DNA from: Octopus sinensis
Taxonomy: Eukaryota
Assembly (NCBI RefSeq): GCF_006345805.1
Contig: NC_043013.1
Location: forward strand, 16,368,001 to 16,432,000
Reading direction: 5' to 3'
DNA length: 64,000 nucleotides
Of this stretch, positions 25,377 through 56,572 are shown in pieces; the stretch's first letter is position 1; each line of letters begins with the position of its first letter. A program made the translations under genes and the position numbers. The notes under the pieces were generated by a model. The model made no database searches. It worked only from the letters and a program-made list of their open reading frames with translations, and had not been told where the DNA came from.

Positions 25377-26321
25377 TCACAAGTCGAACTTCCGAGATCG
25401 CTGCTTACAGGAGAATATATTTTTAATGCTTTTTATTATGTTAGCATCAAAAAGCAAAAGAAACGGCAGGAAGACGAAGCTTGACCAATCAGCATAGTTT
25501 AGGACACGTAGCGTTTCTACAGTATAATGGTAAGGTATTATTACACCGGATGAGTTGCTTATTAAGATAACTTGGACAATTCTTGGCACAAGACATAAGA
25601 AAACGATGGAAAAATCAGTCAACAAAATAGGCATGACACAACCGATGTGTTTGTCGTCCATCTTTAGGGAAGGATAAAATTTGGTCTTTGAAGTTGAAGC
25701 CACTAGTGCAATGGCAGACGATAGGAGCAAGACGAGCAAAAACAGGGAAAAATAGGGGAAGAGAATATCTTGTAACAGATGACATGTATCGTTATCACGT
25801 GTGTCGTGATGAGCATTATTGAAATTGAGGAACATAACTATTAGATTGATTAAAGCACTTAAAATTGCCATCGAAAGCAAACTAATATGAATGCCATATT
25901 CATAGCATTTTGACATGTAAACCTGTGGCTTTAGAAGTGAAACACACCGATCGATATTCAAACAAATCATACTTATATTAGCCGCGTCTTGAATAGTTCT
26001 AGACAAGGCATGCCATAAAATACAAAAATTTGCTCCCAAATTCCATTTTCCGTGATTGCTTTCTAAGTAAGCTTCTATGCAAAGGCTGACTATTCCAAAA
26101 ATAAGTGATGTAAACAGTACACCAAGTAGACATTTTCTATAGGGATTCCAGTACTTTGACCAATCTTTAGACAATGCCACAATTATGAGAGAGCAGAGGC
26201 TTATAATTGGGCTGGTAAGACAAATAAGGAAAATACTTCTGCCACTTAAGTGACTGCCGGCAGGAGGTTGGGCGATACCGTATATGTAGTAGCTGTGATC
26301 TTTTATATCTGTTATCACCAT
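25377..26321 (-). CDS. Divergent class A (rhodopsin-like) GPCR 1, 314 aa, single coding exon
   Basis: Seven hydrophobic segments; ECL1 WNLGANFC, TM3 C..(23)..DRC at canonical spacing, ECL2 Cys, TM6 CLVP, helix 8; AG acceptor immediately before the ATG. Confidence 0.9.
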   Translation of the reverse strand: MVITDIKDHSYYIYGIAQPPAGSHLSGRSIFLICLTSPIISLCSLIIVALSKDWSKYWNPYRKCLLGVLFTSLIFGIVSLCIEAYLESNHGKWNLGANFCILWHALSRTIQDAANISMICLNIDRCVSLLKPQVYMSKCYEYGIHISLLSMAILSALINLIVMFLNFNNAHHDTRDNDTCHLLQDILFPYFSLFLLVLLLSSAIALVASTSKTKFYPSLKMDDKHIGCVMPILLTDFSIVFLCLVPRIVQVILISNSSGVIIPYHYTVETLRVLNYADWSSFVFLPFLLLFDANIIKSIKNIFSCKQRSRKFDL

Positions 26322-26472
26322 CTACATGAAATATAATAAACAAACATTTCCTTGAACGTTATATATATTTTGTTACGATAAAACATTCAAGCATCATTAA
26401 AAAACATGCACTGAAAAATTTTTTAATATTTTTTGAAAAATAAACATTTTTATATTTTTCATTGAAAATATC

Positions 26473-26688
26473 TAAGGGGTTAAACACAGAGGGGACAAAC
26501 AAGGACAGACAAACGGATAAAGTTGATTACATTGACCCCAGTGCGTAACTGGTACTTAATTTATCGACCCCGAAAGGATAAAAGGCAAAGTCGACCTCGG
26601 CGGATTTTGAACTCAGAACGTAACGACAGACGAAATACGGCTACGCATTTCGCCCGGCGTGCTAACGTTTCGGCCAGCTCACCGCCTT
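26473..26688 (-). mobile_element. SINE family A, long-tail subfamily
   Basis: Full head-core-tail on the minus strand; approximate TSD tttca.tg.aaatatc. Confidence 0.85.
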
Positions 26689-27069
26689 TTCAATGGAAAA
26701 TATCGTTAAACTTTCATTAAAAATACTCGTTTGTATATTTTAAATTTATTATCACTGGAAATTCTTATTAAATATAAAAAGCTTACATTTCTATATTATT
26801 TCATTTTAAAAAATATTGCAAATAATGGCATTAGTTAATATTGAATCCAATATTGAAAAATATTTTAAATATTTACGTTTGTTTATATTTAATTTTATAT
26901 CATTAAAAAACATTACATATATAAAAGAATCTGTATGTTTACATTAATATTGAAACAATCATTATAAGTTTCTGTATATTAAATTGACCCCTAAAAAGTT
27001 ATAACTGAAAAAAAAACCCATTAAAATACCATTAAATTATGTACATTTGTACATAATTTAATGATATCT

Positions 27070-27242
27070 AGACTTCGGCCATTCTGCGGCACCGCCATAA
27101 AGAAATCGATTCCAGTATGTATTTTGTTCTAAGCCTGGTACTTATTTTGTCGGTCTCTTTTGCAGAAACGCTAAGTTACGGGGACGTAAAGAAACCAATA
27201 CCGGTCTTCGAACGGTGATGGAAAACAAACACAAAGGCACAT

Positions 27243-27282
<40 letters not shown>

Positions 27283-27435
27283 CGACGAGCTTTCAGTTTC
27301 TGTCTACCAAATCCAGTCACAAGGATTGATCAGCCTGTGGCTAGAGCAGGAGAACGAAAATGTCACGCAATAGAACTGAACCAGAAGCCTTTTGGTTAGG
27401 AATCAAACTTCTTACCGCACTGCCAGTCCCACGCC
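27070..27435 (-). mobile_element. Diverged SINE family B
   Basis: Similarity to other family B copies. Confidence 0.7.
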
Positions 27436-27844
27436 AACATCGCTTCAAAATCGTATGAGAACTTCGTCAAAATATTAACATGTAGATATATTGAAAAATA
27501 AAATTTTACATCAGCTGTCCCGATGGTTAAAATTTTGAGGCAGATTTTGGCCGCGAATTCTAGAGAGGGAACGACTCCGTAGAGGCTCTTCGTGTTGTTG
27601 TTGTTGTCGCCCCTAAAATCACAAAGCCATTGATATGCATTCTATATCATCAGGAGCATCCATCAATGGGTGATATATCCTCTTGCCTTAAAAACCTTGT
27701 TCTGGCGGTTTTTGTTTTGTTTTATTATTGCCGTAATTGTTATTTTTGCTATTGTTGCTTTTGTTGTCGGTATTGTTGTTTTCGGTGTTGTTATTATTGC
27801 TGTTGAGCGTAGCAGTCTTCGTCCAGTGGGAGAAGTCCGAAACG

Positions 27845-28157
27845 TGGTCCTTTGCTCTTCGTAAGACCCGCAGAAGAGAAAGCAGGTCAACCTCCGACAC
27901 CGAGAGCATCGACGGATGGATGCGCATCCAGGCTCAGCGGTTGCGTAGAAGTCGGGGATAAGAAACAGGAAGAAAGAGTGAGAGAAAGTTGGGGCGAAAG
28001 AGTACAACAGGGGTCGCCACCACCCCCTGCCGGAGCCTCGTGGAGCTTTGGGTGTTTTCGCTCAAAAAACACACACAACGTCCGGTCTGGAAATCGAAAC
28101 CGCGATCCTCCGACCGCGAGTCCGCTGTCCTAACCATTTGACCATTGCGCCTCCACG
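27845..28157 (-). mobile_element. SINE family C (tRNA-Arg-like head)
   Basis: Reverse complement of 31031-31230. Confidence 0.8.
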
Positions 28158-29483
28158 CTGTTGCTGTTGTTTTCCTTCCTGATATTCTTCGAATTGTGTC
28201 GTCGGCCATCAGGCTTTCTCATATCACCTGAGCAGAGCAATTAGGAGTTGAAGTTGGGTCTCAGGTTTTAGATTGTGCAAAGTGGGAGAAGCTCTTATCA
28301 CCGCCGCCGCCGTACCACCACCAACAACACCACCACCACCAACAACAACAATAGTCACTATGAGATAATTCGATCTACTAGAAATAGCACCAGATCTCTC
28401 TCGTATTACACCTTCCATCGTGGGAAATGAAAGACACAGTTGATAACATAGTCTTAAGTACACAATACTTGAAAGAAACACGAGAAAAGGGTGGGTAGAC
28501 TTTGATCATAGATGAATGCTGCTAGGGCTAAAGAATAACTACACCTACTTCAAAATTTACAAGTAAATGCCGCGAGTAAGGCTTGTTCGAAGTCATAAAA
28601 TGCTGGGTTCAATCTTACTAAGTGACATCTAAAACAAGAGTCTTGCTATAGGCTCATTGTTCATTCAAGCTTCTTGAGTGAAATTGGGTAGACAGAAACT
28701 GGGCGGAAGCCCCTCAGATGGATTGCTCTCGTATTTCAAAGGAGCGACTGTATCACGTATCTTAGGTTTTCAAATATTAATCTGTAATGAAGCTTCAAGG
28801 TAAATATAAATACAAATTAGAGTAAGTTAAGTTTCACCACGAGGAGTGAAAAATCCTTACTTTTCGGACATTGCCCATGCTATCAGTAGACATTTATTTT
28901 TTATATTCTTTCTTTCTGAAGAAAGACTAGAATCCGAAACGCAACGTTTTCCATACCACATAGCAAACAAGTTACCACACTTAATATTCATGTATTTTAG
29001 TTATTCTTTTCATTTACTGTGGAGTGGGGGATGCACCTATGTTGTTTCTTGTGAAATTCATATTATGGGGCTTTGCGGTCGCCGTTAGCCTCAGCGTTCC
29101 AGCCGTGAGAAACCGTCTTAAATTGATGCCATTAATGTTACAGTTACGCAGTTGCAGACCAACCTCTGCAGAGGAAACATGAGGAAGGAGAAAATTCCAG
29201 AGATCGACATGCTAGGGAGAAAGGACTAAGAATGATTGCGTGTGCGAGAACCGAAGGAATTAGGTATGCCAAAAGTAAAGGCAATTGGATCGAAGATGCC
29301 AGAGTGGGGGATGTGTGGGGTGAGGTATGAGACCAGCCAACTCTGAGGAACAGATGTCATTGCAGTAGACCATGAGACCATGGATCTGTTGCACCAGGGC
29401 CTGGCCGACCTAGGGTCAAATAAAAAGGAATAAAACAGTAGATAATTAGGCTTTGATATACAGTCTGGATAACCTTTGACTTG

Positions 29484-29525
<42 letters not shown>

Positions 29526-30125
29526 CAGTAGACACGGGATTAAACCGCAACAGCTAAAGCAAGCGTTGGCTTCTATGACCCTAGATACTGCATAGCAAAA
29601 ATATCGACGAGATAGTCACGATTGGAACATATTTATAGATAGGTATTCTGGGTCAGAGCTGACCGAGAGTTAAACAACGAAATATTAATAACAACAATAC
29701 CAACAACAATCACAACTGCAATCATAATAACAACAATAATGACGAAAGACACTAGGGAATATGATTCCAGCTGCACAAAGGAAGCATACAAGAGTTGGTC
29801 ATGGGAAGAACGCCTCTGAAAATAAGTCTTAGAGAGCTAAGCTAACAATAGCAATATTAAAAATGAAAACAATAAATTGGACTTACTTTGTTTCTTATTG
29901 TTAACCTGTTTGTCTTGTTCCCAGTGAAAGTGAGAAGGGGCTGGTTTTGTGCACTTCTTGCATAGAGTTGTTGATTTATTGTCAAAGAAATTAGCTAGCT
30001 TGTTTGTGAGCAATTAGGATGACTGATTAAGCATTTGTTACAAATGTTGGCCTAGCACTCAAGAAAACAGGGTGGACACCCACCCCCCACAAATAAATAT
30101 ATAAGTAAATATATGTTTAATAAAT

Positions 30126-30191
<66 letters not shown>

Positions 30192-30342
30192 AAACATATA
30201 TATATATATGTACGCATGCATGTATATGTATATATACATACACACACATGTATAAACGCACACATACACACTCATGCACAAACTCAAAAGGAGATACATA
30301 GATTAACATGAACATGTAAACAAATAAATGCCTCTCTCCCCC

Positions 30343-30385
<43 letters not shown>

Positions 30386-31030
30386 CATACGTACATGCAT
30401 ACATACATACATACATACATACATACATACATACATACATACATACATACATGGATATACATATACACACAGACACACGTTAATACACGTATGTACACAC
30501 AAACCAACAAACAAAATTAAGCAAGTGACTTTTTAGTCTAGTGCTGCCTGCAATTATAAATAATGAGTTTCTACGAAATAGACTTACGTTTCATTAGAAT
30601 AATTAGTACATTACACACAATCAAATGTGGTTTAACCCCACCCAACTGACTCTCACACAACCGCACACGAACAATCCCGTATATATGTGGTAACGAAAGG
30701 ATACGTGGCTTAGTGTGATGCGCTCATGACCGAAAGCTTGTGGTTTCAATTCCTGGACCGGGCGATACGTTGTATTCTTGAGGAAAACCCTTCTTTTCAC
30801 GCTGCTCCAGTCCATTCAGCTGGCAAAAATGAGCAATCCTGCGACGGACCAGCGTACTGTCCGGGGTGAGGGGCAATATATGCGCCACAGAATCTGGAAA
30901 ACCAGCCGCATGAGCCTCTGACTCAGGAAGGATATTTTATCTTTTCGTTTTATCTTTTGTATACTATGTAATTTCCCTTCTTTTCCCCTATATACTGTGT
31001 GTGCTTACTCTTTGTTATTATTATTCTTTC

Positions 31031-31415
31031 GTGGAGGCGCAATGGCCTAGTGGTTAGGGCAGCGGACTCGCGGTCGTAGGATCGCGGTTTCGATTCCCAG
31101 ACCGGGCGTTGTGAGTGTTTATTGAGCGAAAACACCTAAAGCTCCACGAGGCTCCGGCAGGGGATGGTGGTGATCCCTGCTGTACTCTTTCACCACAACT
31201 TTCTCTTACTCTTACTTCCTGTTTTCTTTGTGTCCCGTATTTCAAAGGGCCGGCCTTTTCACTCTCTGCGTCACGCTGAATATCCCCGAGAACTACGTTA
31301 AGGGTACACGTGTCTGTGGAGTGCTCAGCCACTTACACGTTAATTTCACGAGCAGGCTGTTCCGTTGATCGGATCAACCGGAACCCTCGTCGTCGTAACC
31401 GACGGAGTGCTTCCA
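31031..31415 (+). mobile_element. SINE family C (tRNA-Arg-like head, TCG at the anticodon position)
   Basis: A box tggcctagtgg, B-box-like ggtttcgattccc. Confidence 0.85.
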
Positions 31416-31539
31416 TTATTCTTTCACTTCTCAGAACGCTCGTTTTTATTTGTTCTGGTTGATTCTGTGAGAAAGGGCGGCAGCTTGCAATCAGAGGTCT
31501 CTTTCCGCACATTATAAGCTTTGATACTTGGCTGTTAAT

Positions 31540-32692
31540 CATCGTGGGAAACATTCAACATCCAAGTACCAATCTCAAAATCCTAGCTGTCTTCCAGCAG
31601 AGCAGTTTTTGGGGTTCGCTCAGCTCTCATGTCAATTCCGATTTCTCTGACATATTTCTCGATTTTGGTTGTTATTGCTCCGAGTGTCCCTACAACCACT
31701 GGAATGACAGACGCTCTCCTTGTAGTTCACATTCTTGCAATTTCGTCTTTTATTAGTCTGTATTTTTCAATCTTTTCTAGTTCTTTGTCACTTATGCGTG
31801 CTTCCCCAGGTATTACAATATCTATAATCTTGGTTTCCTTTTTTCTTTATCTACCACAGCATTATCTGGTCTACGAGCATCGAAAAGGGAGTTATATTGG
31901 ATTGTAAAATACCACAATATCTTATATTCCTTGTTCTCGGTGACTCTTTCTGGTTCATGTTCGTATCATTTCCGTGCTCTGTTCAGGCCGCACTTTTCAC
32001 AAAGCCTCCAGTGGAAGAACTTAGCCACGTTATCCTGCCTCCCTTTGTATTGCTTTTTAGATGTCACATAGCATCCAGTATCGTGATGTTGATTGAAAAT
32101 ATTGAGTCTACCTGAGGTTTGTAACAACAAGGACCTCAGACAGACAGTATGCGTGCAGTTCCAAGTAATGCTGATTTTTGCAATACACCTAGATTGTAGG
32201 GTATTTTTAAAGTTTCCAGATGATTTTTTCAGGTTGGGTGGTATTGAACTCAATGCTTCGATGACCATAGGGACAACCTTTATGTTTGCTCTCGTAGCTG
32301 CCACATCTTAGAGATCTCAATTCTCAAGTCTCCATATATATCAATATTTTCTCTTTCTTTCATTATATGTTGATCTCCTGGCACTGCCACGTCGATTATT
32401 AAGCACACTTGTTTGTCCCTCCTATTAGGCACACTTCTTTATCCCTACTATATCCGGCTCTAACACCTTGTCTGTCTGGAAGTCAAAGTCCCAGAGGATT
32501 TTTGCTTTCCCCTTTTCGTTCATTACGTTTTCCGGTGTATGTTGGTACCAAGCACCCTTTACCTCGTATCCATACTTTTGGCATAGTAGCCAGTGAAGGT
32601 TTTGGACCACCTTGTCGTGTCTGCACTTGAACTCTTTCTGCCCAATACTTTCACAAGCTCTAACAATGTGAGTCACGCTTTCGACCCTATTA
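31540..32692 (-). mobile_element. Two decayed RLE (Dong/R4-like) LINE 3' fragments
   Basis: ESVTHIV..C, RHDKV..HW.LC, ILWDF, PDIV motifs; terminates in (TAA)n. Confidence 0.75.
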
Positions 32693-32693
32693 A

Positions 32694-32770
<77 letters not shown>

Positions 32771-32771
<1 letters not shown>

Positions 32772-32981
32772 AGCGGCGAGCTGGCAAAATCGTTAGCACG
32801 TTGGATGAAATGCTTTGCGGTATTTCACCCGTGGTTACGTTCAGAGTTCAAATTCCGCTGAGGTCGACTTTGCTTTCATCCTTTCGGGGTCGATTAAATA
32901 AGTACCAATGAAACACTGGTATAGATGTAATCAACTATCTCCCTACACAAAATTTCAGGCCTTGTGCCTATAGCAGAAAGG

Positions 32982-33022
<41 letters not shown>

Positions 33023-33232
33023 AGCGGCGAGCTGGTAAAATCGTTAGCACGTTGGATGAAATGCTTTGCGGTATTTCACCCGTGGTTACGTTCAGAGTTC
33101 AAATTCCGCTGAGGTCGACTTTGCTTTCATCCTTTCGGGGTCGATTAAATAAGTACCAATGAAACACTGGTATAGATGTAATCAACTATCTCCCTACACA
33201 AAATTTCAGGCCTTGTGCCTATAGCAGAAAGG

Positions 33233-33285
<53 letters not shown>

Positions 33286-33475
33286 GGCGGCGAGCTGGCA
33301 GAATGGTTAACAAGCCGGGAGAAATGCGTAGCGGAGTTCAAATTCCGTCGAGGTCGATTTTGTCTTTCTTCCTTTCGGGGTCGATAAGTTAAGTAGCAGC
33401 TGAGTACTGGGGTCGATGTAATTGTCTGTTCCCTCCCCACAAAATCCAGGCCTTGTGCTTATAGTAGAAAGGATT
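32771..33475 (+). mobile_element. Three SINE family A (short-tail) copies separated by (ATT)n; the first two are near-identical
   Basis: 32771-32982 vs 33022-33233 differ at about one base. Confidence 0.9.
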
Positions 33476-33479
33476 ATTA

Positions 33480-34262
33480 TTAGGCGTCGACGAGGATCAA
33501 CTTACTGGTCTGTTTCGGAGAACTTTCGGACCGAGGCCTGTGGATAACTTCCAGAAATCTCTTGTCTGGCAGTGCTACCGAGGGGCACTGCCCGTTCAGG
33601 ATAAACTTTGCAGGCACTGAAGGGCCGTCAGCCGGGCCTTCTCGAGGTGCACTGAGAGTGACGAAACCCTTCTGCACGCCCGAGCATTGCTGACCTGTGG
33701 GTTTATATCGAATAGCTGCTGTCGTGTGTAGGACGGATCTGGCTATCAGCTGAATCCATAGTCAAGATTACCCCAACGATATCCTGTAACCGGAAGGGGC
33801 AGGCAATTTCCATTTGTCTGGTGACTGTAGCAAAAGAGATAGTATGGTAGATTCGTTTGAAAGGGCTGAAGTCAAACACTTTCCTCTTTGGCCAAACCCT
33901 CAACAACTTTTACAAGTTTCACTTGAAAAGGAAAGTGAGGGTGGAGAGGGAAGTGTTGTCTTCTAGCAAATTTATTGAAAAGTGGGTGGATGTTGGAAAA
34001 ATGGCCAGTGTTGATGGACCAATTCTGAGAATACACTTGTAAAAAGAATAAAAGAAGGGTTCTTGCGCTGTTGATCAGGCACCCGTGGCCTTTGTTGGGT
34101 TTTCCACGAATAACCTTTAAAGCGCCTCCCCCTAGTGGGAATTTTACTTGTTACCTCACTTTTGTTATTTAATTTTTACACGAATGTGAAAACCCTTTGT
34201 ATCGTCTTGTGTTGTCTTTTATGCATAACTTATATTAGCCCCTGTGGCCAATAAAAGAAAAA
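33480..34262 (+). mobile_element. Tx1/L1-like LINE ORF2 3' fragment
   Basis: SRC.ESDETLLHA zinc-finger remnant; ..FYKFHLKRKVRVEREVLSSSKFIEKW..; 3' tail gcccctgtggccaataaaagaaa plus (ATT)n. Confidence 0.7.
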
Positions 34263-34309
34263 TTATTATTATTATTATTGTTGTTGATGTTGTTGTTATT
34301 AGTATTATA

Positions 34310-34363
<54 letters not shown>

Positions 34364-34386
34364 ATTAGTAGTAGTAGTAGTATTAT

Positions 34387-34424
<38 letters not shown>

Positions 34425-34429
34425 TTCAG

Positions 34430-35290
34430 TAGTGCAGCTCTGTGTGCCATGACTATGTGGTTTGTTGAGGTGCTCTTATTTTCACTGTATTGAAAGTGTT
34501 TTACGTAGGATGTGTGCTATTTTCTGCATGTCAATATGACATACAGAAAATAGCCCACTTGTAAGTCCTGGTGTTTTTGTTATGCATTTGTCTGAATGTT
34601 TTTTTATCATACTTAATGCGCCCACTATAGTAGGAATTGTTTCTGATTTTACGCTCCACATTCGAATTACCTCTATTTCTAGGTCTTTGTATTTTGAAAG
34701 TGTCTCCGTTTCTTTTAGAGAAACATTGCTATCTGTTGATATTCATATATCGATTAGAACACTTTTTTTTCTTAGTTATCTCTGACAACTATATCTGGCC
34801 AATTGGCCTTACTTTCTCTATCTGTGTGTATTGGCATATCCCAGGGTATGGTTGCTTTCTCGTTTTCTGTGACCTTTCCTGATGTGTGCCCACACCATCT
34901 TTTTTCTGTTGTTATTGCATAGTGTTAGCATAGCTTCTAGTATATATAGGTCCCAACTCTGTCATGTCTGTGAATACATTCTTTCTTAGCCAGGACTGGG
35001 GAGCCAGAGACAATATGATTTGTTGTTTCTTCTCCACCACCACCTATACTGGAGTTACTTGTATTTCTTTTCATTACTTGTTTTTGGTGATTTCTAGTGG
35101 GAAGGCTTTGATCTTGTACTGCAATTAACGATCATCCAGTCTCTGCCTTGAGTCCTGAGCTTCTCAGCCATTATTGGGATTTTGCTTTGTCTATTTCTTT
35201 TCTGTTTAGCTTAACCTAATATCTGTCACGTAGGGACTTTTCTTGCCATCATTTTATCATGATCTGTTGCTGTTCCAGTTTTAGTTCAAA
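34430..35290 (-). mobile_element. Dong/R4-like RLE LINE 3' fragment
   Basis: Reverse-complement homology to 4872-5695. Confidence 0.8.
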
Positions 35291-35309
35291 TGAGCATGCC
35301 TAGACAGGC

Positions 35310-37305
35310 AACTATATGCATACATATATGCATGCATACATATATACAAACATACATACATGCATGCATGCATACATACATACATACATACATACATACA
35401 TACATACATACATACATACATACTACATGCATGCATGCATACATAAATACATACATACATACATACAAACATACATACATGCATGCATGCATACATACAT
35501 ACATACATACATACATACATACATGCATACATACATACATACATACATACATACATGCATGCATGCATGCATACATACATACATACATACATACATACAT
35601 ACATGCATACATACATACATACATGCATGCATACATGCATGCATAAATACATACATACATACATACATACATACATACATGCATACATACATACATACAT
35701 ACATACATGCATACATACATACATACATGCATACATACATACATACATGCCTACATACATGCATGCACACATTCATACATACATCATACATACATACATA
35801 CATGCATACATACATACATACATACATACATACATACATGCATGCATACATACATACATACATACATACATGCATACATACATACATACATACATGCATA
35901 CATACATGCATACATACATACATACATACATGCATGCATACATACATACATACATGCATACATACATACATACATATATAGATACATGCATACATACATG
36001 CATGCATACATACATGCATACATACATGCTTGCATACATACATACATACATACATACATGCATGCATGCATACATACATACATACATACATACATACATA
36101 CATACATACATGCATACATGCATACATACATACATACATACATACATGCATACATGCATACATACATACATACATACATACATACATGCATACATACATA
36201 CATACATGCATACATGCATACATGCATACATACATACATACATGCATACATACATAAATTCATACATACATACATACATACATACATACAAACATGCATA
36301 CATACATATATACATGCATGCATACATACATACATTCATACATACATACATACATACATGCATACATACATACATACAAACATACATACATACATACATA
36401 CGTACGTACATACATACATTCATACATACATACATACATTCATACATACATACATACATACATACATTCATACATACATACATACATGCATGCATACATA
36501 CATGCATGCATACATACATACATACATACATACATACATGCATGCATACATACATACATACATACATACATGCATACATACATGCATACATACATACATA
36601 CATACATTCATACATACATACATGCATACATACATACATGCGTGCATACATACATGCATACATACATACATACACATTCATACATACATACATACAAATG
36701 CATACATTCATACATGCTACATTCATACATGCATACATACATAACCTACATACATACATACATACATACATATCATACATACATACATACATGCATACAT
36801 ACATACATACATCATACATACTACATGCATGCATACATCATACATACATGCATACATACAACATACATACATACATACATACATACATACATACATGCAT
36901 ACATACATACACACACAACACCATACATACATACATACACATATACATTCATTCTACATACATACATACATTCAATACATACATACATACATACATACAC
37001 ATCACACATTCATACATACATATATACATACATACATACATACAACATGCATACATACATACACACACCACAACATACATACATACATACATACATTCAT
37101 TCATACATACATACAATGCATACATACATACATACATACATACATGCATGCATACATACATACATACAATACATACATGCATACATACACACACACACAC
37201 ATACATACATACATGCATGCATACATACATGCATACATACATACATACATGCATACATACATGCATACATACATGCATGCATACATACATACATACATAC
37301 ATACA

Positions 37306-37335
<30 letters not shown>
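35310..37335. repeat. About 2-kb (CATA)n/(CATG) tetranucleotide array
   Basis: Direct reading; source of the long HTYI/MYVC pseudo-ORFs. Confidence 0.95.
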
Positions 37336-44919: not shown

Positions 44920-45019
44920 NNNNNNNNNNNNNNNNNNNNNNNNNNNNNNNNNNNNNNNNNNNNNNNNNNNNNNNNNNNNNNNNNNNNNNNNNNNNNNNNN
45001 NNNNNNNNNNNNNNNNNNN
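44920..45019. other. Assembly gap (100 N)
   Basis: Run of N. Confidence 1.
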
Positions 45020-45165: not shown

Positions 45166-45317
45166 ACGAGCTTCTTTTAGTTTTCCTTATACCAAATCCA
45201 CTCACAAGAATTTAATCGGCCCGAGGCTATAGTTCAAGACACTCGCCCAATGTCACGCAACGGGACTGATCTTGGAACCATGTGGTTGGTAAGCAAGCTA
45301 TTTACCACACAGCCTCT

Positions 45318-45359
<42 letters not shown>

Positions 45360-45672
45360 ATATATATTATATTATTAAAAATTAACAGTTATCGCCAAGC
45401 TATATGGCAGTCCATAATATAAGACTAAAGCTGGGTTTGGCTACTCTGCATTGATAAAGGGCAAATACCCTGAAACATGTCTGCAGATGCCTGACCAGCA
45501 AGAGGAAGTGGCTGGCCTCCCCTGTTCAAAGGTTATAATGGACACAGGTTCGTGTGTCATATAGCGAGCTAGAGGCGATGGCCCCTTGGAGCTAATCAAC
45601 GGCAGCTTTAGTCTTATATTTATGGACTGCCATATTAGCTGGCGATAGCTGTTAATTAAAGTCATCTCATCA

Positions 45673-45719
<47 letters not shown>

Positions 45720-45821
45720 GTTATTATTATTATCATCATCATCATCATCATCATTATCATTATTATATTTATATTGCTAATAATTCTTTATCATATATAT
45801 ATATATATATATATATTATAT

Positions 45822-45852
<31 letters not shown>

Positions 45853-45954
45853 TATATATATATATAGTTATAGATATATATATATATATTAACACCTTCA
45901 GTTTTGGATTTGGTTTTCAAGATTCTTTTATGTGAGTTCGTGTATTGAAGCATA

Positions 45955-46243
45955 TATTGTTGTGTCTGGGGAGAGTCATTCTCTTTTAGTGCCTTATTAT
46001 TTAACACACTCACTCGTAAAGTTTCCACTCATTTACTTATTTATTGTTCCTAAAATTTTCGCTGCGTTTTGCAACTTTTTCAATAGTCGTTGACTCTGTT
46101 TATTATCCGAGCTGCGTTCTTTTTGTTTGTTTGTGCGTATGTGTGTGGTTCAGTGGGTATGCGCATATAAACGCATGTATGTATGCATGCAGGCATGAAT
46201 GTGTGATGTATATATGTATGTATGTGAGTGTGGGTGTGCGCGC

Positions 46244-46285
<42 letters not shown>

Positions 46286-46319
46286 ATATAATATTATATA
46301 TATATATATATATGTATGT

Positions 46320-46369
<50 letters not shown>

Positions 46370-47529
46370 TGTATGGTATGTATGTGTGTGTGTACATTTG
46401 TATGCATGCATCTGTATATTCATGTGCTTGTGTGTGTGTGTGTGTCTCTGTTTCCTTATGTGTGCATGTCTGAATGTGCTTGTGTATGGGTTTTTTTGTG
46501 ACTATGTACTGCGTCTGTACGTATGGGTGTGTGTCTCCATATGTGCCCTTGTGTGAAGTGAAGTGTGTGTGTGTATGGTCACGTGTTTCAGTCTTCATTT
46601 GCGTATGTATGTGTGTATGTGTGCTTGTGCTTGTCTGTTCATATTACCTATGTACCTATTCGTTTGTATGGCTATCTGTTTACATTCATATCCATTTACG
46701 TACATGCATGTGCACATACATATACGTACGTGTATACATATACACACACACACACACACACGTACATACATACATCTACATAATAGCCCACTAACTATTC
46801 TACCTGTATATAAATGTAAACTGTGTGTATAGGGGTATGATTACCTACTACGTATATTTCCTCTTTACTACTGGGGATATTTTATTTATGATAACGTTCT
46901 CTTGTATTTGTCTGAGGGTTGGGTCCCTTGGGTGCTTGGATAAAATGCGGATATCAAGTTGCCCCAGGTTGCCTCCATATTGGTCCTTGGCATGCTAGTA
47001 GAGTAAAGTAAGGGACACATATGTAGACACACGTCCATACATACAGACAGTACATAGTCACAAAAAATCCATACACAGACACACACGGACATGCACACAC
47101 AAGGAGACAGAGGTACAAACTACACACTTGCAAACATAGAAACACTCATAAAAGCACACAAACATGAACACGCAAGCTTATGAATATGCAGAATACATAC
47201 ATGCAAACGTACACACATACATACATATGTACATATGCACACACACATACATGCATACACACATTTACATGCAAGCATGCATGGTTACATACATACATAC
47301 CTACATACATGTGTATGCACACACACACTCGCTGACCCACACACATACGCACAAACAAACAAAAAGAACGCAGCTCGGATAATAAACAGAGTCAACGACT
47401 ATTGAAAAGGTTGCAAGACGCAGCGAAAATTTTAAGAACAATAAATAAGTAAATGGGGAAAATTTACGAGTGAGTGTGTTAAATAATAAGGCACTAAAAG
47501 AGAATGACTCTCCCAAGACACAACAACAT

Positions 47530-47530
<1 letters not shown>
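45955..47530. repeat. Long inverted duplication (arms about 45955-46550 and 47010-47530)
   Basis: The ORF track shows the same peptide [33 protein letters not shown] on opposite strands; DNA anchors match. Confidence 0.85.
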
Positions 47531-47564
<34 letters not shown>

Positions 47565-48414
47565 TATAATATATATGTAATGTATGTATGTATGTTGTAT
47601 GGATGTATGTATGTATGCATGCATGCATGCATGTATGTATGTATGTATATATATATGTATGTATGTATGTATTTATGTATGTATGTATGTATGTATGTAT
47701 GCATTCATTATGTATGTATGTATGTATGGCATATATGTATGTTTGTATATATGTATGTATATATACGTGTATGTGTGTATGTATGTGTATAATTACATAT
47801 GTTTTATTGAAAGTGCTCAGCACATGATTACAATTGCGTTGGGTTTATGATACCAATATGAAATTTACCCACAGAAAGAAAATTATAGCTTTCTGTACAT
47901 ACATCATACATACATACATACATCATACATACATACATACATACATACATACATACATACATACATACATACATACATACATACATACATACATACATGA
48001 AATGACCAATAGATATATGAATGTCAGATTACATATCCTGCAATATGTAGTTAAGTACGTTTTACATTTCAAGTTTAAATCATTGGTTAATAACGTTTTT
48101 ATGTTCTCGCAGCATATTTTAGTTCTTCTGGGATTCTGAAGCCAAACTGTATTTAAATATGTTAATACTAACTTAACATAGCACCACAAAGATGTTTAAC
48201 CTGGAACCAGAAGAACATCTTACAATTTCAGTTTACATATTTACGAATATTTAACTCCAAACACGTATGTGTAATGAGTGATTAATCCCATAAAACAGAA
48301 TATATTTCATGAAACTGAAGACGCTAAAGATTTCCATTTTGCAGGTTCAAAACAATCGTATTCATATTCATATTGACCTCAAAGTGTCTATTAATTGAGT
48401 GGTAACATATGGAA

Positions 48415-48654
48415 ACTTTTGAAGGCGGCGAGCTGGCAGAATCGTTAGCACGCCGGGCGAAATACTTACCGGTATTTCGTCTGCCGCTACGTTCTGAGTT
48501 CAAATTCCGCCGAGGTCGACTTTGCCTTTCATTCTTTCGGGGTCGATAAATTAAGTACCAGTTAAGCACTGGGGTCGATGTAATCGACTTAATACCTATG
48601 TCTGTCCTTGTTTGTCTCCTCTATGTTTAGCCCCTTGTGGGTAATAAAGAAATA
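48415..48654 (+). mobile_element. SINE family A, long-tail subfamily, 14-bp TSD
   Basis: TSD ggtaacatatggaa at 48401-48414 and 48655-48668. Confidence 0.9.
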
Positions 48655-48838
48655 GGTAACATATGGAATGAACTGCTGCACATTTTGTTGATAGTCTTGT
48701 TATTACCTAGATGATATTTCAATGGTTTTAAGATATTTTATTTAACAAATATTTATTTTTCTTTCAGACCTGAAAACTGCCCTTCGGTAAGCACGTTTTT
48801 TGTAATTGTTTGTTTTATTTAGTAAAAGAATTAACAAA

Positions 48839-49786
48839 ATGGAAAACCTGTCATTTGTTTTTGAATCTGGAAACTTTAGCAACACTAGTATGAATTTTAC
48901 TGAAGCCGAATTTCAGGAGATATCATATTTTTGGAAGGACGCGGTTGCTTGTGTTTGTGCCACTATTATGTTCCTTTTTAACGGATTTCTCTTGTGTGTC
49001 GTAAACCAAGACAGAAAGGCTTACAGGAAATGCTATTCGTTGCCATTGCTGAATTATTTACTTAACTACACCTTCTTTGGATTGTTCTATTATTTTTACA
49101 ATGTTCATATTCACATCTATGAAAAGATGTCGCACAGTAGCTGCGTTTTCATCCATATCATGTATACCGTGTTTAAAGATGGAACACGCTGTTTCATACT
49201 TCCGATCTGTATTGATGTTATAGTGCAATATTTTAAGCCGAAACTACACGAGAAACAAAAATTTCTCTCCTTTCAGGCAATTTTTCTTGCTGTTCTTTGG
49301 GGTATTCTCTTCACCCAAACAATTTCAATCCACTCAGGAACGTCAGAAAAAGATTCAAATTTCTGCCTTCTTTACATTCATGTCTCCCTTATATGGTACC
49401 AGATCGGGTTTGCTATATTCTTTGACTGTTTACTGATCATTTGTGTCATTCTCCAGCTATATATAGCGGCTAAACGAGAAGAGCCCTTAACGCTGACATT
49501 CAACACTCTGGCAGCACAAACAACCATAGCTTTGTTCCTGACAGTTCTTGACGTGGTTTCCATATCAGCATCTATTGTTATGTTTGTGTATATGCACTCT
49601 CAACTGATGAATTTGTACAACCTTGTTGACTTTATATACATGATAGCCAGTGTATTGTTACCGTTTTTCTGGCTCTGTGATTCCTCAATACGACAGAGTA
49701 TATGGAAAAAAATGACGAAAGGAAATGCGAAACAAGAAGATACAAAAGAAGATATCGAGTTAACTCCGCGAGAAAAGGAATCTTAA
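48839..49786 (+). CDS. Divergent class A-like GPCR 2, 315 aa, single coding exon
   Basis: First ATG at 48839 (the track start at 48806 is TTG); N-terminal sequons NLS/NFS/NTS/NFT; 7 TMs; C3.25, D3.49, TM4 W, ECL2 Cys, TM7 LPFFWLCD; AATAAA at 49936. Confidence 0.88.
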   Translation: MENLSFVFESGNFSNTSMNFTEAEFQEISYFWKDAVACVCATIMFLFNGFLLCVVNQDRKAYRKCYSLPLLNYLLNYTFFGLFYYFYNVHIHIYEKMSHSSCVFIHIMYTVFKDGTRCFILPICIDVIVQYFKPKLHEKQKFLSFQAIFLAVLWGILFTQTISIHSGTSEKDSNFCLLYIHVSLIWYQIGFAIFFDCLLIICVILQLYIAAKREEPLTLTFNTLAAQTTIALFLTVLDVVSISASIVMFVYMHSQLMNLYNLVDFIYMIASVLLPFFWLCDSSIRQSIWKKMTKGNAKQEDTKEDIELTPREKES

Positions 49787-50611
49787 ACATTTTAAACATT
49801 TATTTATGCATGTATGTGTTTATATATATATATATATGTGTGTTTTTATGTATGTATGTATGTATCTTTGTTTGTTTGTTTGTACCTACATACGTATGTA
49901 TACTCTCCTGCCTTTATAACTATTTGAATTTTTCCAATAAAAATCGAATGTGTTCCAAACAGATAAACGAACCCCAGTCAGAATTTATAGGAACAACAAC
50001 GGCCAAGATATACCTGTTGAATTTTAAGAAAGTCTTGCATACATTTACTGTCTCGTTTACAGATTATATTCGCCAGTATGGGTATTACCTGGTCACTGTT
50101 TTGACCGAAAACCCTCATTTTACGTGCATAAAAATTGGGAATTTGTGACAACGCACAAACAATTTGAGATTGAAATGTAAAAGCATAACATGCTTTAAAA
50201 AAATATATAAGATTCGAAGCATTTGTCTCAAAATATTCTCTTTCTCACTGGCTTTGAAGCAAATGTTCACATTTGGGGGTATCAAATATCTATAACTTTT
50301 CTTTACTGTCCAAAATAACTATATCGGGCTTTTTAAGTAATAAACAATAGAAATATTTTACACATATGCACACACTCACAAGGATACATGTGAGCACACA
50401 GGCTCAAAAGAAGGTAGAGAAATTAGAATTCGAATACCAAAGGTAGAGTGAATTAGTATTCTATCGAGATGCTAAGATGGTGAGATAAGACTATAAAAAT
50501 GTTATGTGAAGTATTTCAGCTTCAACAGAATATTTTACGTATGTATGTATGCCATGATAGATCGTTAGCCACTACACACATTTTTCTTCTCTCCTTGTTT
50601 TTTCTGTGTCC

Positions 50612-50647
50612 CTTTTTGTAGAAGAGCGTAGGCTCGAAACGTAAAAG
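50612..50647 (+). ncRNA. Degenerate minimal hammerhead-like motif in a PLE remnant
   Basis: CTTT-ttgtaga-a-GAGC-gtag-GCTC-GAAA-CG-TA-AAAG; stems intact, core mutated. Confidence 0.4.
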
Positions 50648-50781
50648 ACTTTTTCTATTCCTGAGCGTTATACTAATACATCTGTTTGTTTAGTACACCA
50701 CCAGTCTTCGTCTTTTCTTTTTTTTTTCGTAAACTCCTCCCTATGAATATATATATATATATATATATAATATATATATAT

Positions 50782-50819
<38 letters not shown>

Positions 50820-51512
50820 TCACTGTTTTATATATCCGAAAAAGAAGCATGCTCTAAAGCAGTAATATATTTTATAGGATGTTAAAGACTGAATCTGACG
50901 AGTCGTCAATTGTGCTAAGCGCTTTATGGGTGCGAAGCCAATAGTCACTCTATGACTGACCATAACTTCTAACTTCCTAAAATATATGTATCTGTATGTC
51001 TGTGTGTACGTGTGTGTGTGTAGATAGTCTTTCCTGCAGATAGCTTTGAAAAATATATTGTACTGTTTAACAGCAATATTTCATTAGAAGATCCCATTGT
51101 AATATCCTGCAACATCCTCCACAGAAACCGAGAGAATGGTTAATTTCTTTTGCATTTCCACAGACCAAGTGTTTCGATCCGTTTTTACTCATTAGTTATT
51201 TTACAGCTGTGTACCACTCTCGGATAGAAAATAAATATATATTCAAACGCCGCACGTATGTATATACGTATGTATATACGTATGTATATATATGTGCATG
51301 TATGTTTATACATGCATGTATATGCGTATGTATGTATATAGAGCTGTTTGTAGATGTATATGTACGTATAAAAACCCTTCTCTTTTCCTTTCAAATGTTG
51401 TACTAATGACTACTTCATATATATATATATATATATCAACAATTGAGATAAAATTATTAATTAATCAATATGTGGCAAAGTAATTTATTTTACTAAGCCT
51501 AATTATATAATT

Positions 51513-51545
<33 letters not shown>

Positions 51546-51628
51546 ATATAAGGGTAAATAATTATAATTTTAAAATTAATAATCATTACCAAGTAGTTTC
51601 GTATAACTACTTTTGTAAATTCCTACCG

Positions 51629-51678
<50 letters not shown>

Positions 51679-52246
51679 CAAATAAGAAAGTGATGACGAT
51701 ACAAAATGGACAATGGACAGGCATCAGCCGGTAAACATTCCAGTATGTCTATTTATTCCAACGTATTAGAATATATTAGACGAATACAAATACATTTATT
51801 AGTTGGGTATCAAGTTTGTAAAAAAATATGTATGTGCTTTAGTAAGTGTGAGTGCGCGCGCCTGTGTGTGTGTATGTGTGTATATGCCCGAGCACGCACG
51901 CCTTTGTGTTCATGTTTGCACCGCCGTCATTGCATGGCAACCGGGGTACTTTCGTTCACATACCCGTAAATTAGCATTTCGGTAAAACGAGAACCATAGA
52001 ATAACTAACAGATTTAAAATGAGTACTGGCATCGATGCGGTGCCAAAGTATGGTCGCAGTCCAATAACTAAAAGAAGTGGAATAATGAAAGAATACGAAT
52101 GTACACTTATATTTCTATATAACACTTATATATTTCTATATACCATTAAGCAAAAATAAAATGCAATAAAAATGGCGTCTGGTTTGTATGTTTGTTCTTG
52201 TTTTTGTTTTGTTTTTTTTTTGTTCGTTCCATTATTTTTTTGTTAT

Positions 52247-52780
52247 AGGTGCAGGCATGGATGTATGATAAGCAGCTTGCTTACCAACCACATGGTTCCG
52301 GGTTCAGTCCCACTGCGTGGAACCTTGGGCAATTGTCTTTTACTATAGCCTCAGGCCGACCAAACCCTTGTGAGTGGATTTGGTCGACGAAATTTAAAGG
52401 AAGCCTGTCGTATATGTGTGTGTGTGCACGGGTGTGTGTGTGTGCACGGGTGTGTGTATGTGCACGGGTGTGTGTGCACGGGTGTGTATGTGTGCACGGG
52501 TGTGTGTGTGTGCACGGGTGTGAGTGTGAGTTTGAGTGTGTGTGTTGGTGTGTGTAGGGGGCGTACATACGTATGTGTATTTCTGCCTGTGTTTGTCCTC
52601 TACCACCAATTAATACCCGATGCTTGTGTTTTACGTCCTCGTAAACTAGTAATTCGGCAAGAGATCGATAGAATAATTACCAAGCTTTAAAAAATAAATA
52701 CTAGGATCGATTCTCTCGACTAAATAATTTTCCAAGACGGTCCCCCAGCATGGCCGCAGTCTAATGACTGAAACAAGTGA
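52247..52780 (+). mobile_element. Diverged SINE family B
   Basis: Head cttgcttaccaaccacatggttccgggttcagtcccactgcgtgg; tail gcatggccgcagtc.aatgactgaaacaagt. Confidence 0.8.
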
Positions 52781-52994
52781 AATATAAAAAATATTTATTT
52801 TAACCATTCTTCTTTAAACTTTCAATGTCAGGCAAATGTTTCTGTTCCTTCTCCAAGAAACCAAGTTATACCATATTTTAGTCGAGGAGGGTCGGTGGGC
52901 TGGTTCATTTTTGGATGCGCCCAACGGTATTCTTTTTTCTAAATATGGAATCATTTGCGCCATGATTTTTGTCAAATATATACATTGGTACATA

Positions 52995-53538
52995 TTGGGT
53001 TGAGGAATGATTCATGAGCGTTTTTCTTTTTTTTTCAAATTTATTGGGTGAAGGTGGTTCACTAGTCTTTTGGGGTTTTTTATCACAATCCATCTGCTCC
53101 GCCGATTCTCTGGTTGTTTGATGTGGATTTTCGTGAAGAAGTTGATTCAATCGCTCTTCATCGAACTCAATTGGTATACCAGTGTGTGATCCGCCCTCGC
53201 GGTCAAAATTCCCATTTTTGAAGCGCGAAAACCAACGGTGAGCGGTACTTTGAGGCACTGCTCTTCCCTATACAGCACAAATCTCATGAATAGCTTCGGC
53301 GGCCTTAACACCTCGATCAAATGCAAAAAAAAACAAATGCTGTCGAAAATGTTCAGTTTTGTCCAATTATCTGAAAATACACAAAAATCAATAAAATCAA
53401 ATAAATCAGAACACACTATCTTGTAGAGCAAAAAATTATCTTTTAAATCACGTAAAACATTTTGCCAATGCGTTTTATTTCTGCGTGGATTTTTAAATTT
53501 GAAAACAAAAAACGCTCATGAATTATTCCTCAACCCAT
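52995..53538 (-). mobile_element. Internally deleted mariner element with both TIRs and TA TSD
   Basis: TIR ttgggttgaggaat.attcatgagcgtttt at both ends; HTH fragment STAHRWFSRFKNGNFD..G.P.EFDEERL..LL.ENP.QTTRE.A. Confidence 0.85.
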
Positions 53539-53914
53539 TAACAAAATGGGTTGTATAGTACACATACTTGTATATTGTGAAATGAGAAGTTAAATTTATG
53601 CATTTGTATCCAGTGGAATATGTGGAGGTGAGTGGCTTAGTGGTTAGGGTACTTTACCCATGATCTCACGATTTTGGTTTTGATTCCTAGACCAGGCGAT
53701 GCATGGTGTTCTTGAGCAAAATACTTCATTTCACTTTCTTCCAGTCGGTTCAACGGGCAAAAATGAACAACCCTCCGACGGACTGACTCTGTTCAAGGCA
53801 GGAATATATGCGCCACAGAATCCGGGATACCGGCTTTATGAGCCCATGGCTCGGAAAGAACGTTTGATCCTTTGATATAATGAAATGTGTTTTTGAATAT
53901 AAGCTCTTGATATA

Positions 53915-54304
53915 ATCTTTTCTACTATAGGCACAAGGCCTGAAATTGTAAAGGAGGGGGGTAATCGATTACATTGACGCCAGTGCGTAACTGGTACTTA
54001 CTTTATCGACCCCTCCCCCGAAAGGATGAGTGCAAAGTTGACCTCGACGAAATTTGAGCTCAGAACGTAGTAACGGGCGAAATACCTATTTCTTTACTAC
54101 CCACAAGGGGCTAAACAAGGACAGACAAACGGATTAAGTCGATTATATCAACCCCAATGCGTAACTGGTACTTATTTAATCAACCCCGAAAGGATGGAAG
54201 GCAAAGTCGACCTCGGCGGAATTTGAACTCAGAACGTAGCGGCAGACGAAATACCGCTAAGCATTTTGCCCGGCGCGCTAACGTTTCTGCCAGCTCGCCG
54301 CCTT
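53915..54304 (-). mobile_element. Two head-to-tail SINE family A copies
   Basis: Reverse-complement family A cores. Confidence 0.85.
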
Positions 54305-54919
54305 AAAATTAGGTATTTCTGTTTATTTAGGAACCTACAATAAACAGACGCTAAACTATAAATTTCGCAGAATACAACCTTAAAGTTGACACCGCTTCGC
54401 TAAACGCAGAAAATTTCTCTCTCTCTCTCTATTGCCTAAAAATACACAGTTGTTTCGATTCTTAAACCACTGTAACTTTTGCCTCCATTTTTTTTCTCCA
54501 CAACGGTGTGCTAACGTTTCTGCCAGCTCGCCGCCTTCTTCCCACTATCTTTTTGTTAGTTGAATGCACGCAGGTACGTTCAGCTGACATAACGCGGTGT
54601 ATATATGTGTATTTATGCGTGTGTGCGGCAGCATGGGCACATGCAAAATGAACTCCCGCGAACACATTATAACTTACAGTTATAATGTGTTAAATAATAC
54701 TGTACATTTGTATAGAATCCTGTAATTTATCGCTTCTGGCGAATCAATCAATACATACATATATACATATATTTATATATGTATAAATAGAAATATTAAT
54801 ATTTCTAAATCTCTCTAAAGGAGACTACGGCAGCGGTAATGGATATTAATAGTTATCGCCAAGCTAACATGGCAGTCCAGGAAAATAGGACGAATGCTGC
54901 CGTTGATTACATATATATA

Positions 54920-54963
<44 letters not shown>

Positions 54964-54979
54964 GTATATATATATATAT

Positions 54980-55034
<55 letters not shown>

Positions 55035-55672
55035 CATAGATAGATACATAGATAGATACATATATCTGTAAAATTTTCATCGTTGATGTTGATAGTAACT
55101 ATATTTACTCTCTCAACGATAAATGAATAATGGAGTCCTAGATATAGTACTCAAAAAGACGAGATATTCACGACTAAATCCGATCTGACTCGAAGTTATA
55201 TAGCTATGTTCAGTTTTATTATTCTGTCTTCACTAATATTCCATTTGGGATTCGATGCTTCTCGTTTTCAATAAACATGCCACCACGATTCAGAAATATA
55301 ACGGATTGGAGAACATACATTTTTGAAGATCAACATATCTGTAGTAAACTAGATGCACAACTGGAACTGCTCCATCCACAGTCACTGGAAACAGAGTTTT
55401 GAATCTAATAGAAATACTTTTTATTTCACTGAAATCGCTAAATAATATTTTAACAGGGATTTAGGAAAGGAGGGATGTGAAAAAAATAATAAAGATCTTA
55501 TGTCTATAAGTTATATGGAACACTAAAAGCCTCGCTCAAAATCTCCTAACTAGGAAGTGAAATTGAATCTCGTAACTGAAATAGAATACATCTCTTAAGT
55601 AAATGATTTCATACATTTTTTCATTGAAATCTTTCTCTTTTTCAGGTTTGAAGTAATTCTGGCCAACGCAAC

Positions 55673-56572
55673 ATGGAAGGTGATCAAATATATGACTATA
55701 TGAACGGTAGCACAACCGTCGAAATCATTTCATTTTCCTGGATGAATATAGCTTCGTCTGTTGCGGCCATTGTAATATTCCTGCTCAGTGCATTGTTAAC
55801 AACAGCTATTTTCCTAGATCGTAAAGCCTATGAAAAAACACGCGCTTTCTTATTACTGAACTATATGTTTAACTACATACTCTTTGCCTTGTTCTTTTAT
55901 TTCCACAACGTGCATATTCATATATATACAGATTTACCTCAGTCTACCTGCTTATTTATTATTATACTAACTTCCGTTACTAACGACGGTACTCTGTATT
56001 TCATACTTCCTATTTGCTGTGATTTTATTGTGAAATACTTTAAACCAAGCAAATATGAAAGTGAAAGTTTTCTATATATCCAGATCATATTAACAATTGT
56101 TTTGTGGGCTTTTATCTGGATCGAAGACCTATTACTGCTTCTAGCGGGCTCGGGATACGAAAGTGAACACTGTGCTGTTTTCTTACATTCCGTTTCCCTC
56201 TGGATCTATTCTGGCACAGTCATTTTGTATATTATTGCGATGTTGGTGTCTGTAGGTCTATTCATTTACGTCGCAGTGAAAGGTAAAGAGCGCGAGAACA
56301 TAAAATCACGATTAATAACTTTGATCATTGTCGTGACATTCATCATACTCTCTTGTATCGGAGAAATTGTTATTTCGATTGCAATTTATTCGAATATAGA
56401 AAACCCTGTTTATTATTTACCCGTTTTATTAAATATGATAAGGTTTGTAGTGGTACCATTTTTGTTGCTTTTTGATGCCACTATACAACAAAGTATTCGG
56501 AAATTATGTTCAGGAAAGTGTAAAAAATCGAGAAATCCTGAATCAGATGAATTAACTACTGAACTAAATTAA
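55673..56572 (+). CDS. Divergent class A-like GPCR 3, 299 aa, single coding exon, paralog of GPCR 2
   Basis: 7 TMs; shares DRKAY.K, LLNY..NY, NVHIHIY, DGT..FILPIC.D.IV.YFKP, PF..L.D..I.QSI with GPCR 2; acceptor ctttctctttttcag at 55645. Confidence 0.9.
   Translation: MEGDQIYDYMNGSTTVEIISFSWMNIASSVAAIVIFLLSALLTTAIFLDRKAYEKTRAFLLLNYMFNYILFALFFYFHNVHIHIYTDLPQSTCLFIIILTSVTNDGTLYFILPICCDFIVKYFKPSKYESESFLYIQIILTIVLWAFIWIEDLLLLLAGSGYESEHCAVFLHSVSLWIYSGTVILYIIAMLVSVGLFIYVAVKGKERENIKSRLITLIIVVTFIILSCIGEIVISIAIYSNIENPVYYLPVLLNMIRFVVVPFLLLFDATIQQSIRKLCSGKCKKSRNPESDELTTELN

Follow-up and report, generated by a model that had tools for sequence, protein, structure and literature searches.

Divergent receptors with a predicted class A fold in Octopus sinensis, and a putative leader shared between two of their genes

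The 64,000-nucleotide stretch of Octopus sinensis DNA analysed in this work (assembly GCF_006345805.1, contig NC_043013.1, positions 16,368,001 to 16,432,000; hereafter the window) holds three receptor genes, A, B and C, which almost certainly belong to a real, conserved and apparently undescribed family of atypical class A receptors. On balance, we find the results best explained by divergent receptors of class A fold standing in an array with a shared leader. An initial annotation, made from the letters of the window, had proposed a cluster of three intronless chemoreceptor candidates of one family; the class A fold, the single family, its lineage-specific radiation and an origin apart from nicotinic acetylcholine receptors (nAChRs) stand, the size of the cluster and the full absence of introns do not. 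What it missed is the gene structure, as B and C probably share non-coding 5′ exons, and the loss of activation switches: as aligned, B and C lack the DRY arginine and most activation motifs, unlike the lophotrochozoan chemoreceptor candidates of PMC11886862. Residues are numbered below by the usual scheme, anchored on the muscarinic-like row of a joint alignment. The three genes are:

25377-26321, minus strand: receptor A, a single coding exon of 314 amino acids (aa), with aspartate and arginine kept at 3.49-3.50
48839-49786, plus strand: receptor B, a single coding exon of 315 aa
55673-56572, plus strand: receptor C, a single coding exon of 299 aa

All three are uninterrupted open reading frames (ORFs) of 299-315 aa, as first described, and the repeat-rich surroundings reported for them are real: self-BLAST masking takes out 46% of the window but none (0%) of the receptor ORFs. 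B and C are 35% identical (E 1e-56), A being much more distant from both (16-23% identity, best pairwise E 7e-6 and 0.034). Each frame has the cysteine exactly 24 residues ahead of the aspartate of the third transmembrane helix (TM3), the aligned lysine-proline of the second intracellular loop (ICL2) and cysteine of the second extracellular loop (ECL2), and the signature P-F-x-x-L-x-D-x-x-I-x-x-S-I, which may be refined to a degenerate NPxxY with P7.50 kept. The seven hydrophobic segments once read from the letters are recovered in one of the three by a simple hydropathy scan (6, 6 and 7), but the AlphaFold models of C and A do have seven long helices plus helix 8, with predicted local distance difference test scores of 80 and 78. 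The evidence for the fold consists of these two models, B being covered through alignment. All structural matches listed for A and C are class A-type receptors, the best having Z 23.4 (root-mean-square deviation 3.5, 271 aligned) and 24.8 (root-mean-square deviation 2.7, 258 aligned), and their scores are tied, singling out no subfamily. The family profile likewise matches class A chains, the best sequence match being muscarinic M5 (E 9e-6), and the class A marks C3.25, ECL2 cysteine, D/E3.49 and P7.50 are present; in the ESM Atlas the matches are generic class A and serpentine clusters, nothing more specific. None of the three reaches the Pfam cut-off for 7tm_1, which A alone matches below that cut-off (E 5e-5), and at E 0.1 it is matched by 6 of 18 family rows and by none of 11 B/C rows. 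Together, models and marks predict A, B and C to be divergent G-protein-coupled receptors (GPCRs) of class A, by descent as well as by fold.

Membership among the aminergic or trace-amine-associated receptors was considered and rejected, since the amine anchor D3.32 is found in 0 of 18 family rows as opposed to 12 of 12 aminergic rows, and the family falls outside the aminergic clade in the trees. The claim that the three are not orthologs of conserved receptors thus holds with respect to the aminergic receptors among those sampled. The octopus chemotactile receptors, which are ion channels derived from nAChRs (PMC11886862), have in common with the present family that they are a cephalopod receptor expansion, and differ in fold and origin; the two are unrelated, as had been supposed, the fold here being that of a class A seven-transmembrane receptor and not of a Cys-loop channel.

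Homologs were collected by three word-index searches and one full profile search; out of 1.84 billion proteins the profile search picked 48 at E 0.001, including 9 at 1e-30. Octopus sinensis has at least 10 members on one contig, namely A, B, C and seven more of the B/C type, so that the B/C radiation counts at least nine copies there: the clustering originally noticed is real, and larger than three. O. bimaculoides has six named members on one contig, Argonauta hians four copies and Sepia pharaonis one distant protein. Every named close relative is from a cephalopod, to which the family is likely restricted; a scan of metagenome contigs gave 425 pattern matches and no relatives. Five O. sinensis/O. 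bimaculoides pairs are 1:1 orthologs of 76-94% identity, which implies that the radiation predates the split of these species and was kept. B and C have such orthologs (94% and 86%), and beyond the genus there are Argonauta co-orthologs of B and distant relatives of A. These orthologs and copies agree with the lineage-specific radiation suggested earlier. The ORF of C, as found in contigs from sequencing runs, shows 8 differences of which 5 are silent (P 0.02-0.04 compared with neutral expectation). Two points count against this picture: the 8 differences come from single contigs at depth 3-6, and only A, B and C are placed within the window, the seven other members lying outside it.

The sites on which the proposed gene structure is built, with those of A for comparison, are as follows:

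48746-48767, plus strand: polypyrimidine tract and CAG acceptor of B, 71 nucleotides (nt) before its ATG
48768-48786, plus strand: candidate shared non-coding exon of 19 nt, its last letters CG and followed by a strong donor, GTAAG, at 48787
48820-48822, plus strand: TAG, a further possible acceptor, 36 nt past the donor and 16 nt before the ATG of B
49936-49941, plus strand: AATAAA behind B, a candidate poly(A) signal of its own
55625-55645, plus strand: polypyrimidine tract and CAG acceptor of C, 27 nt before its ATG
56573-56861, plus strand: 3′ untranslated region (UTR) of C to the extent covered by single-copy contigs, which end at 56655, 56661, 56712 and 56861
29887-29953, minus strand: non-coding 5′ exon of A, unique in the window, its upstream boundary not fixed
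26322-29886, minus strand: 5′ UTR intron of A, with acceptor AG directly before the ATG and donor GTAAGT at 29886
25146-25160, minus strand: two AATAAA behind A, candidate poly(A) signals

No AATAAA lies within 350 nt behind C. The coding regions are intronless, as claimed, and the genes as wholes are not, their introns lying in the 5′ UTR. We hypothesize that non-coding leader exons are shared by, and spliced to one of, several last exons each encoding a whole receptor, B and C being the first such units. A transcript would enter at acceptor 48767; by skipping donor 48787 it would run into B, and by using this donor it would jump over B to the acceptor of C (55646) or to that of a later paralog, with a separate poly(A) site for each transcript. 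For the B/C array, splicing from a shared leader with the choice made at donor 48787 is in our judgement fairly probable.

The first line of evidence is the naming of the orthologs. Four O. bimaculoides proteins are given by RefSeq as isoforms X1-X4 of one locus, LOC106869328, yet they are 33-69% identical, have no shared termini and fall into different subclades; B is orthologous to isoform X1 and C to isoform X4, and in the O. sinensis window these two are complete ORFs 5.9 kb apart. The same pattern recurs at LOC128246974, LOC115220941 and LOC115220942 (50-68% identity). Naming non-overlapping ORFs as isoforms implies, under RefSeq practice, that a non-coding exon or splice site is common to them; the explanation that they have coding exons in common was rejected, as the N-termini differ. 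In addition, a G followed by GTAAG is expected only 0.01 times within the 71-nt 5′ UTR of B, where this donor stands.

The second line comes from contig ends. Among the 24 sequencing runs listed, 20 contain C, whole or in part, and none is recorded as RNA; four runs from 3 studies, guessed as likely RNA, had their contigs placed on 55070-57850. In three of the four the contigs begin at the acceptor of C, run X7 having no contig there, and carry 30 (run X1), 28 (run X2) and 0 (run X3) letters upstream of it; in runs X1 and X2 the match extends by one base, so that the last letter of the upstream exon must be G and the letter before it anything but A. In a toy graph with k=31, 30 letters result from a rival exon beginning with A, C or T after the same donor, 28 from a rival continuing GTA (a retained intron or read-through), and 0 from a second upstream exon feeding the acceptor, and all three observed ends take these branch-predicted values. 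Under that toy graph, the 30 letters of run X1 cannot stem from an unspliced GT intron. The 19-nt candidate exon fits the G not preceded by A, the 28 letters of run X2 and the sharing of a splice site between isoforms X1 and X4. C has a spliced 5′ end. The zero contig coverage of 55070-55627 and 57395-57850 in the four runs fits spliced RNA and proves nothing alone.

Several points speak against a shared leader. It rests on RefSeq isoform names and contig ends, read with a presumed RefSeq naming rule and a presumed k of 31 for the run contigs; runs X1 and X2 belong to one study; and the rival paths at the acceptor of C might stem from pre-mRNA or from UTR exons that C alone uses. LOC115220990, a name transferred onto the B-like Argonauta proteins only, suggests a locus of its own for B in O. 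sinensis. One alternative is an ordinary tandem cluster, in which every receptor is driven by a promoter and 5′ exon of its own and RefSeq has merged neighbors because of rare read-through or mis-mapped reads. Locus boundaries do vary by species and annotation release (one protein, P0016, moved from isoform X2 of LOC106869328 to isoform X1 of LOC128246974), several members in O. sinensis are annotated as single loci, the leader of A is private, and human olfactory receptors are known to share UTR exons and to form chimeric transcripts now and then (PMC3566163). Mis-mapping may also have been attracted by the proteins P0008 and P0009 (O. bimaculoides isoforms X4 and X3), which are identical over 76 residues from TM2 to ICL2 and 69% alike elsewhere, their O. 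sinensis orthologs being without this stretch; gene conversion likely accounts for it, to judge from the sequences. Mis-mapping cannot, however, link isoforms X1 and X2 to X3 and X4, as they are 33-46% identical with a longest exact match of 6-11 residues. Moreover, the merging recurs at four loci in two species, the contigs that reach the acceptor of C end at branch-predicted lengths in 3 of 3 cases, and a strong donor stands inside the 5′ UTR of B, so that we regard the tandem cluster as rather unlikely.

Should the leader prove to be shared, receptor choice by splicing could be tested directly at this locus, where a single junction (48786 to 55646) is predicted. Choice among olfactory receptors is otherwise made by promoter. 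The arrangement itself is already known: in zebrafish, Ugt5a1-a4 combine one 5′ non-coding exon and one promoter with mutually exclusive coding exons and separate polyadenylation (PMC2819257), and the human olfactory receptor genes OR5V1 and OR12D3 share 5′ UTR exons, as cited in PMC3566163. Ugt5a resembles the B/C array in its tandem single-exon ORFs, each a whole-ORF exon with an acceptor before the ATG, and differs in encoding enzymes and in being proven by cDNA cloning, whereas the octopus genes encode receptors, their arrangement is deduced, and B would be reached by read-through of an internal donor. The human genes resemble it as intronless-ORF GPCRs of one cluster with common 5′ UTR exons; the sharing there concerns few genes in ectopic tissue, whereas in the octopus it would extend to four paralogs or more, with identities down to 33%. 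Read-through and antisense transcription are also reported for the odorant receptor arrays of ants (PMC12393541).

The anatomy of the receptors is unusual. All 12 B/C rows of the joint alignment lack D2.50, R3.50, P5.50 and Y7.53, and B/C rows are also without the W6.48-P6.50 pair and N7.49; they keep C3.25, D/E3.49, W4.50 and mostly P7.50, and have gained Y2.50 and, in 12 of 12 rows, a proline at 3.45. A-type rows keep the TM6 proline, and R3.50 in 2 of 5. The acidic residue D/E3.37 is found in 16 of 18 family rows and in 1 of 24 outside rows (11 of 12 B/C, 4 of 5 A-type, 1 of 12 PxxW, see below, and none of 12 aminergic). In a comparison of nine paralogs from O. sinensis, the inner halves of the helices are more conserved than the outer (identity 0.57 and 0.34; 0.50 and 0.19 for TM5-7), the best-conserved parts being ICL1, inner TM3 and helix 8 (0.66-0.68); the 12 aminergic controls give 0.39 and 0.27 (0.33 and 0.25 for TM5-7). 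Such asymmetry would fit many ligands and one cytoplasmic partner, part of it being general to class A. The B/C paralogs could thus be ligand-diversified sensors, in which the acid at 3.37 would lie deep in the pocket, a hypervariable outer rim of TM5-7 would give specificity and the conserved inner face would signal to one common partner without the usual DRY and NPxxY switches; we rate the chances of this as even. A chemosensory role, in which sensory tissue would detect chemical cues from outside as the ligands, can be put forward only tentatively. More speculative still, and a decidedly long shot, is the idea that in octopods each sensory cell picks one chemoreceptor by leader splicing and not by promoter, with signalling independent of the class A switches.

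This reading of the anatomy has its own weaknesses: conservation is greater inside than outside in the aminergic controls too, alignment columns are not independent, and the apparent loss of the canonical switches in B and C makes signalling through G proteins doubtful. The B/C products might rather be atypical seven-transmembrane proteins without G-protein activation, whether scavengers, receptors biased towards arrestin or proteins that modulate others in the membrane, and they might work outside sensory tissue, for instance in gill, kidney, gonad or haemocytes. The losses at 3.50, 2.50, 5.50 and 7.53, the new proline and the absence of 7tm_1 matches among B/C rows are what this alternative would lead one to expect. 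On the other hand, ICL1, inner TM3 and helix 8 are the parts best kept, as expected with a common cytoplasmic effector, and diversification of the outer TM5-7 suits many ligands better than one endogenous ligand. Bitter-taste receptors, too, signal without these canonical motifs. For other class A expansions of cephalopods, expression lies mainly outside the brain and includes testis and gill (PMC6408891), a distribution favorable to the alternative, which we nevertheless find doubtful. Whatever their partner, B/C-type proteins have a conserved C-terminal tail like E-L-T-x-E-(L/I)-N (window 56540-56572 and 49750-49786), found also in Argonauta and in the protein P0022, a possible phosphorylation or docking motif.

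A is a separate sister gene, divergently transcribed and with a leader of its own: a database protein, P0005, fuses the translation of its upstream exon directly to MVITD, the start of A. Mixture-model trees put A-type and B/C-type proteins together on one side of a branch, with support of 97/96 in 48 rows including the Sepia protein and 100/97 in the 33 rows left after ten long-branch and five redundant rows were removed, which bears out the single family first proposed, with A as a distant sister lineage. Less favorably, a quick tree of 64 rows left A-type and B/C-type unresolved, both stems are long (>1.1 changes per column) and the closest outside group differed between trees. That A is of separate origin, its grouping an artefact of long-branch attraction and its adjacency coincidental, finds some footing in these points and in the low identity of A to B/C, but is very unlikely given the starred mixture-model support in two row sets, the common D/E3.37, helix-8 motif and loss of D2.50, P5.50 and N7.49, and the mere 22 kb between the genes.

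Eleven amine-like orphans (P0025, P0030, P0032, P0034, P0036, P0042, P0044, P0052, P0055, P0061 and P0062) have P-x-x-W replacing NPxxY in TM7 and form one clade (96/89). With these and the aminergic receptors the family shares C3.25, D3.49, W4.50 and P7.50, and with the PxxW group alone W7.53; it differs from them by the absence of D3.32 and by the acidic 3.37, and stands outside or loosely beside both in the trees.

Some further observations concern individual relatives. The four Argonauta hians copies (P0020, P0063-P0065) are near-identical, B-like and arranged as two pairs on two scaffolds, as recent duplicates or alleles would be. P0005, 88% identical to A over 190 residues (compared with 25618-26321), has a frameshift in TM5 and an early end, and may be a pseudogene of a related octopus or a sequence error. 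P0076, an N-terminally extended record of Sepia type, reads, by back-translation only, as if an acceptor with its polypyrimidine tract stood some 26 nt ahead of the start codon, a spacing like that of C.

In the rest of the window, the six-frame hidden Markov model search and tblastn found no fourth member or remnant of the family, and no non-repeat homology was seen among the upstream regions of A, B and C. Of the 68 listed ORFs, a Pfam scan of 30 long ones other than the receptors gave 3 matches (a reverse-transcriptase zinc finger, a Mos1 helix-turn-helix and a polyarginine artefact), those outside the scan being the three receptors or mostly microsatellite frames. A supposed circovirus remnant at 10416-10907 was rejected as a polyarginine microsatellite. 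The (CATA)n microsatellite at 35319-37335 (2 kb, about 506 units) is the source of many long false ORFs, and at 32731-33272 a 251-base unit, made of a common short repeat with an ATT tail, is tandemly duplicated, the copies being 99% alike. The 5′ exon of A (29887-29960, minus strand) holds a 20-codon upstream ORF ending just ahead of the donor. A and the B/C array are transcribed in opposite directions, outwards from the 22 kb of 26321-48839, where the promoter and first leader exon of the array may sit, and where a 100-base gap lies at 44920-45019. Other features are:

4791-5531: retroelement remnant (zf-RVT)
52905-53515: mariner-type remnant (HTH_48)
about 56920-57320: highly transcribed repeat behind C

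Cephalopod GPCR expansions are on record (PMC6408891, PMC11886862, PMC9795677), the second of these counting 23 O. sinensis and 11 O. bimaculoides expansion genes. Its lophotrochozoan class A expansions resemble the present family in having clustered paralogs, short proteins, variable extracellular TM halves and 1:1 orthologs within genera; DRY and NPxxY are common motifs there, whereas B and C are without both. A literature search gave no account of the family or locus: six locus and protein identifiers had no matches, the SPLASH octopus passages and supplement are silent, and four of four UniProt identifiers of the family are absent from the supplements of PMC6408891, the SPLASH octopus table, the Dryad files of PMC6408891 and the Zenodo files of PMC11886862 lying outside this search and possibly bearing on novelty. 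The survey of PMC6408891 kept one isoform per gene. Such a family is nearly invisible to standard censuses, since none of the 11 B/C proteins matches 7tm_1 and paralogs filed as isoforms are dropped wherever a single isoform per gene is retained.

In conclusion, hidden receptor arrays of this kind bear on the view of cephalopods as poor in chemosensory GPCR expansions, as reported in PMC11886862. The B/C proteins show how far the loss of activation switches can go in a class A receptor still under selection, and an array whose members are chosen by splicing would, if true, amount to a way of choosing receptors that is new for a sensory system.

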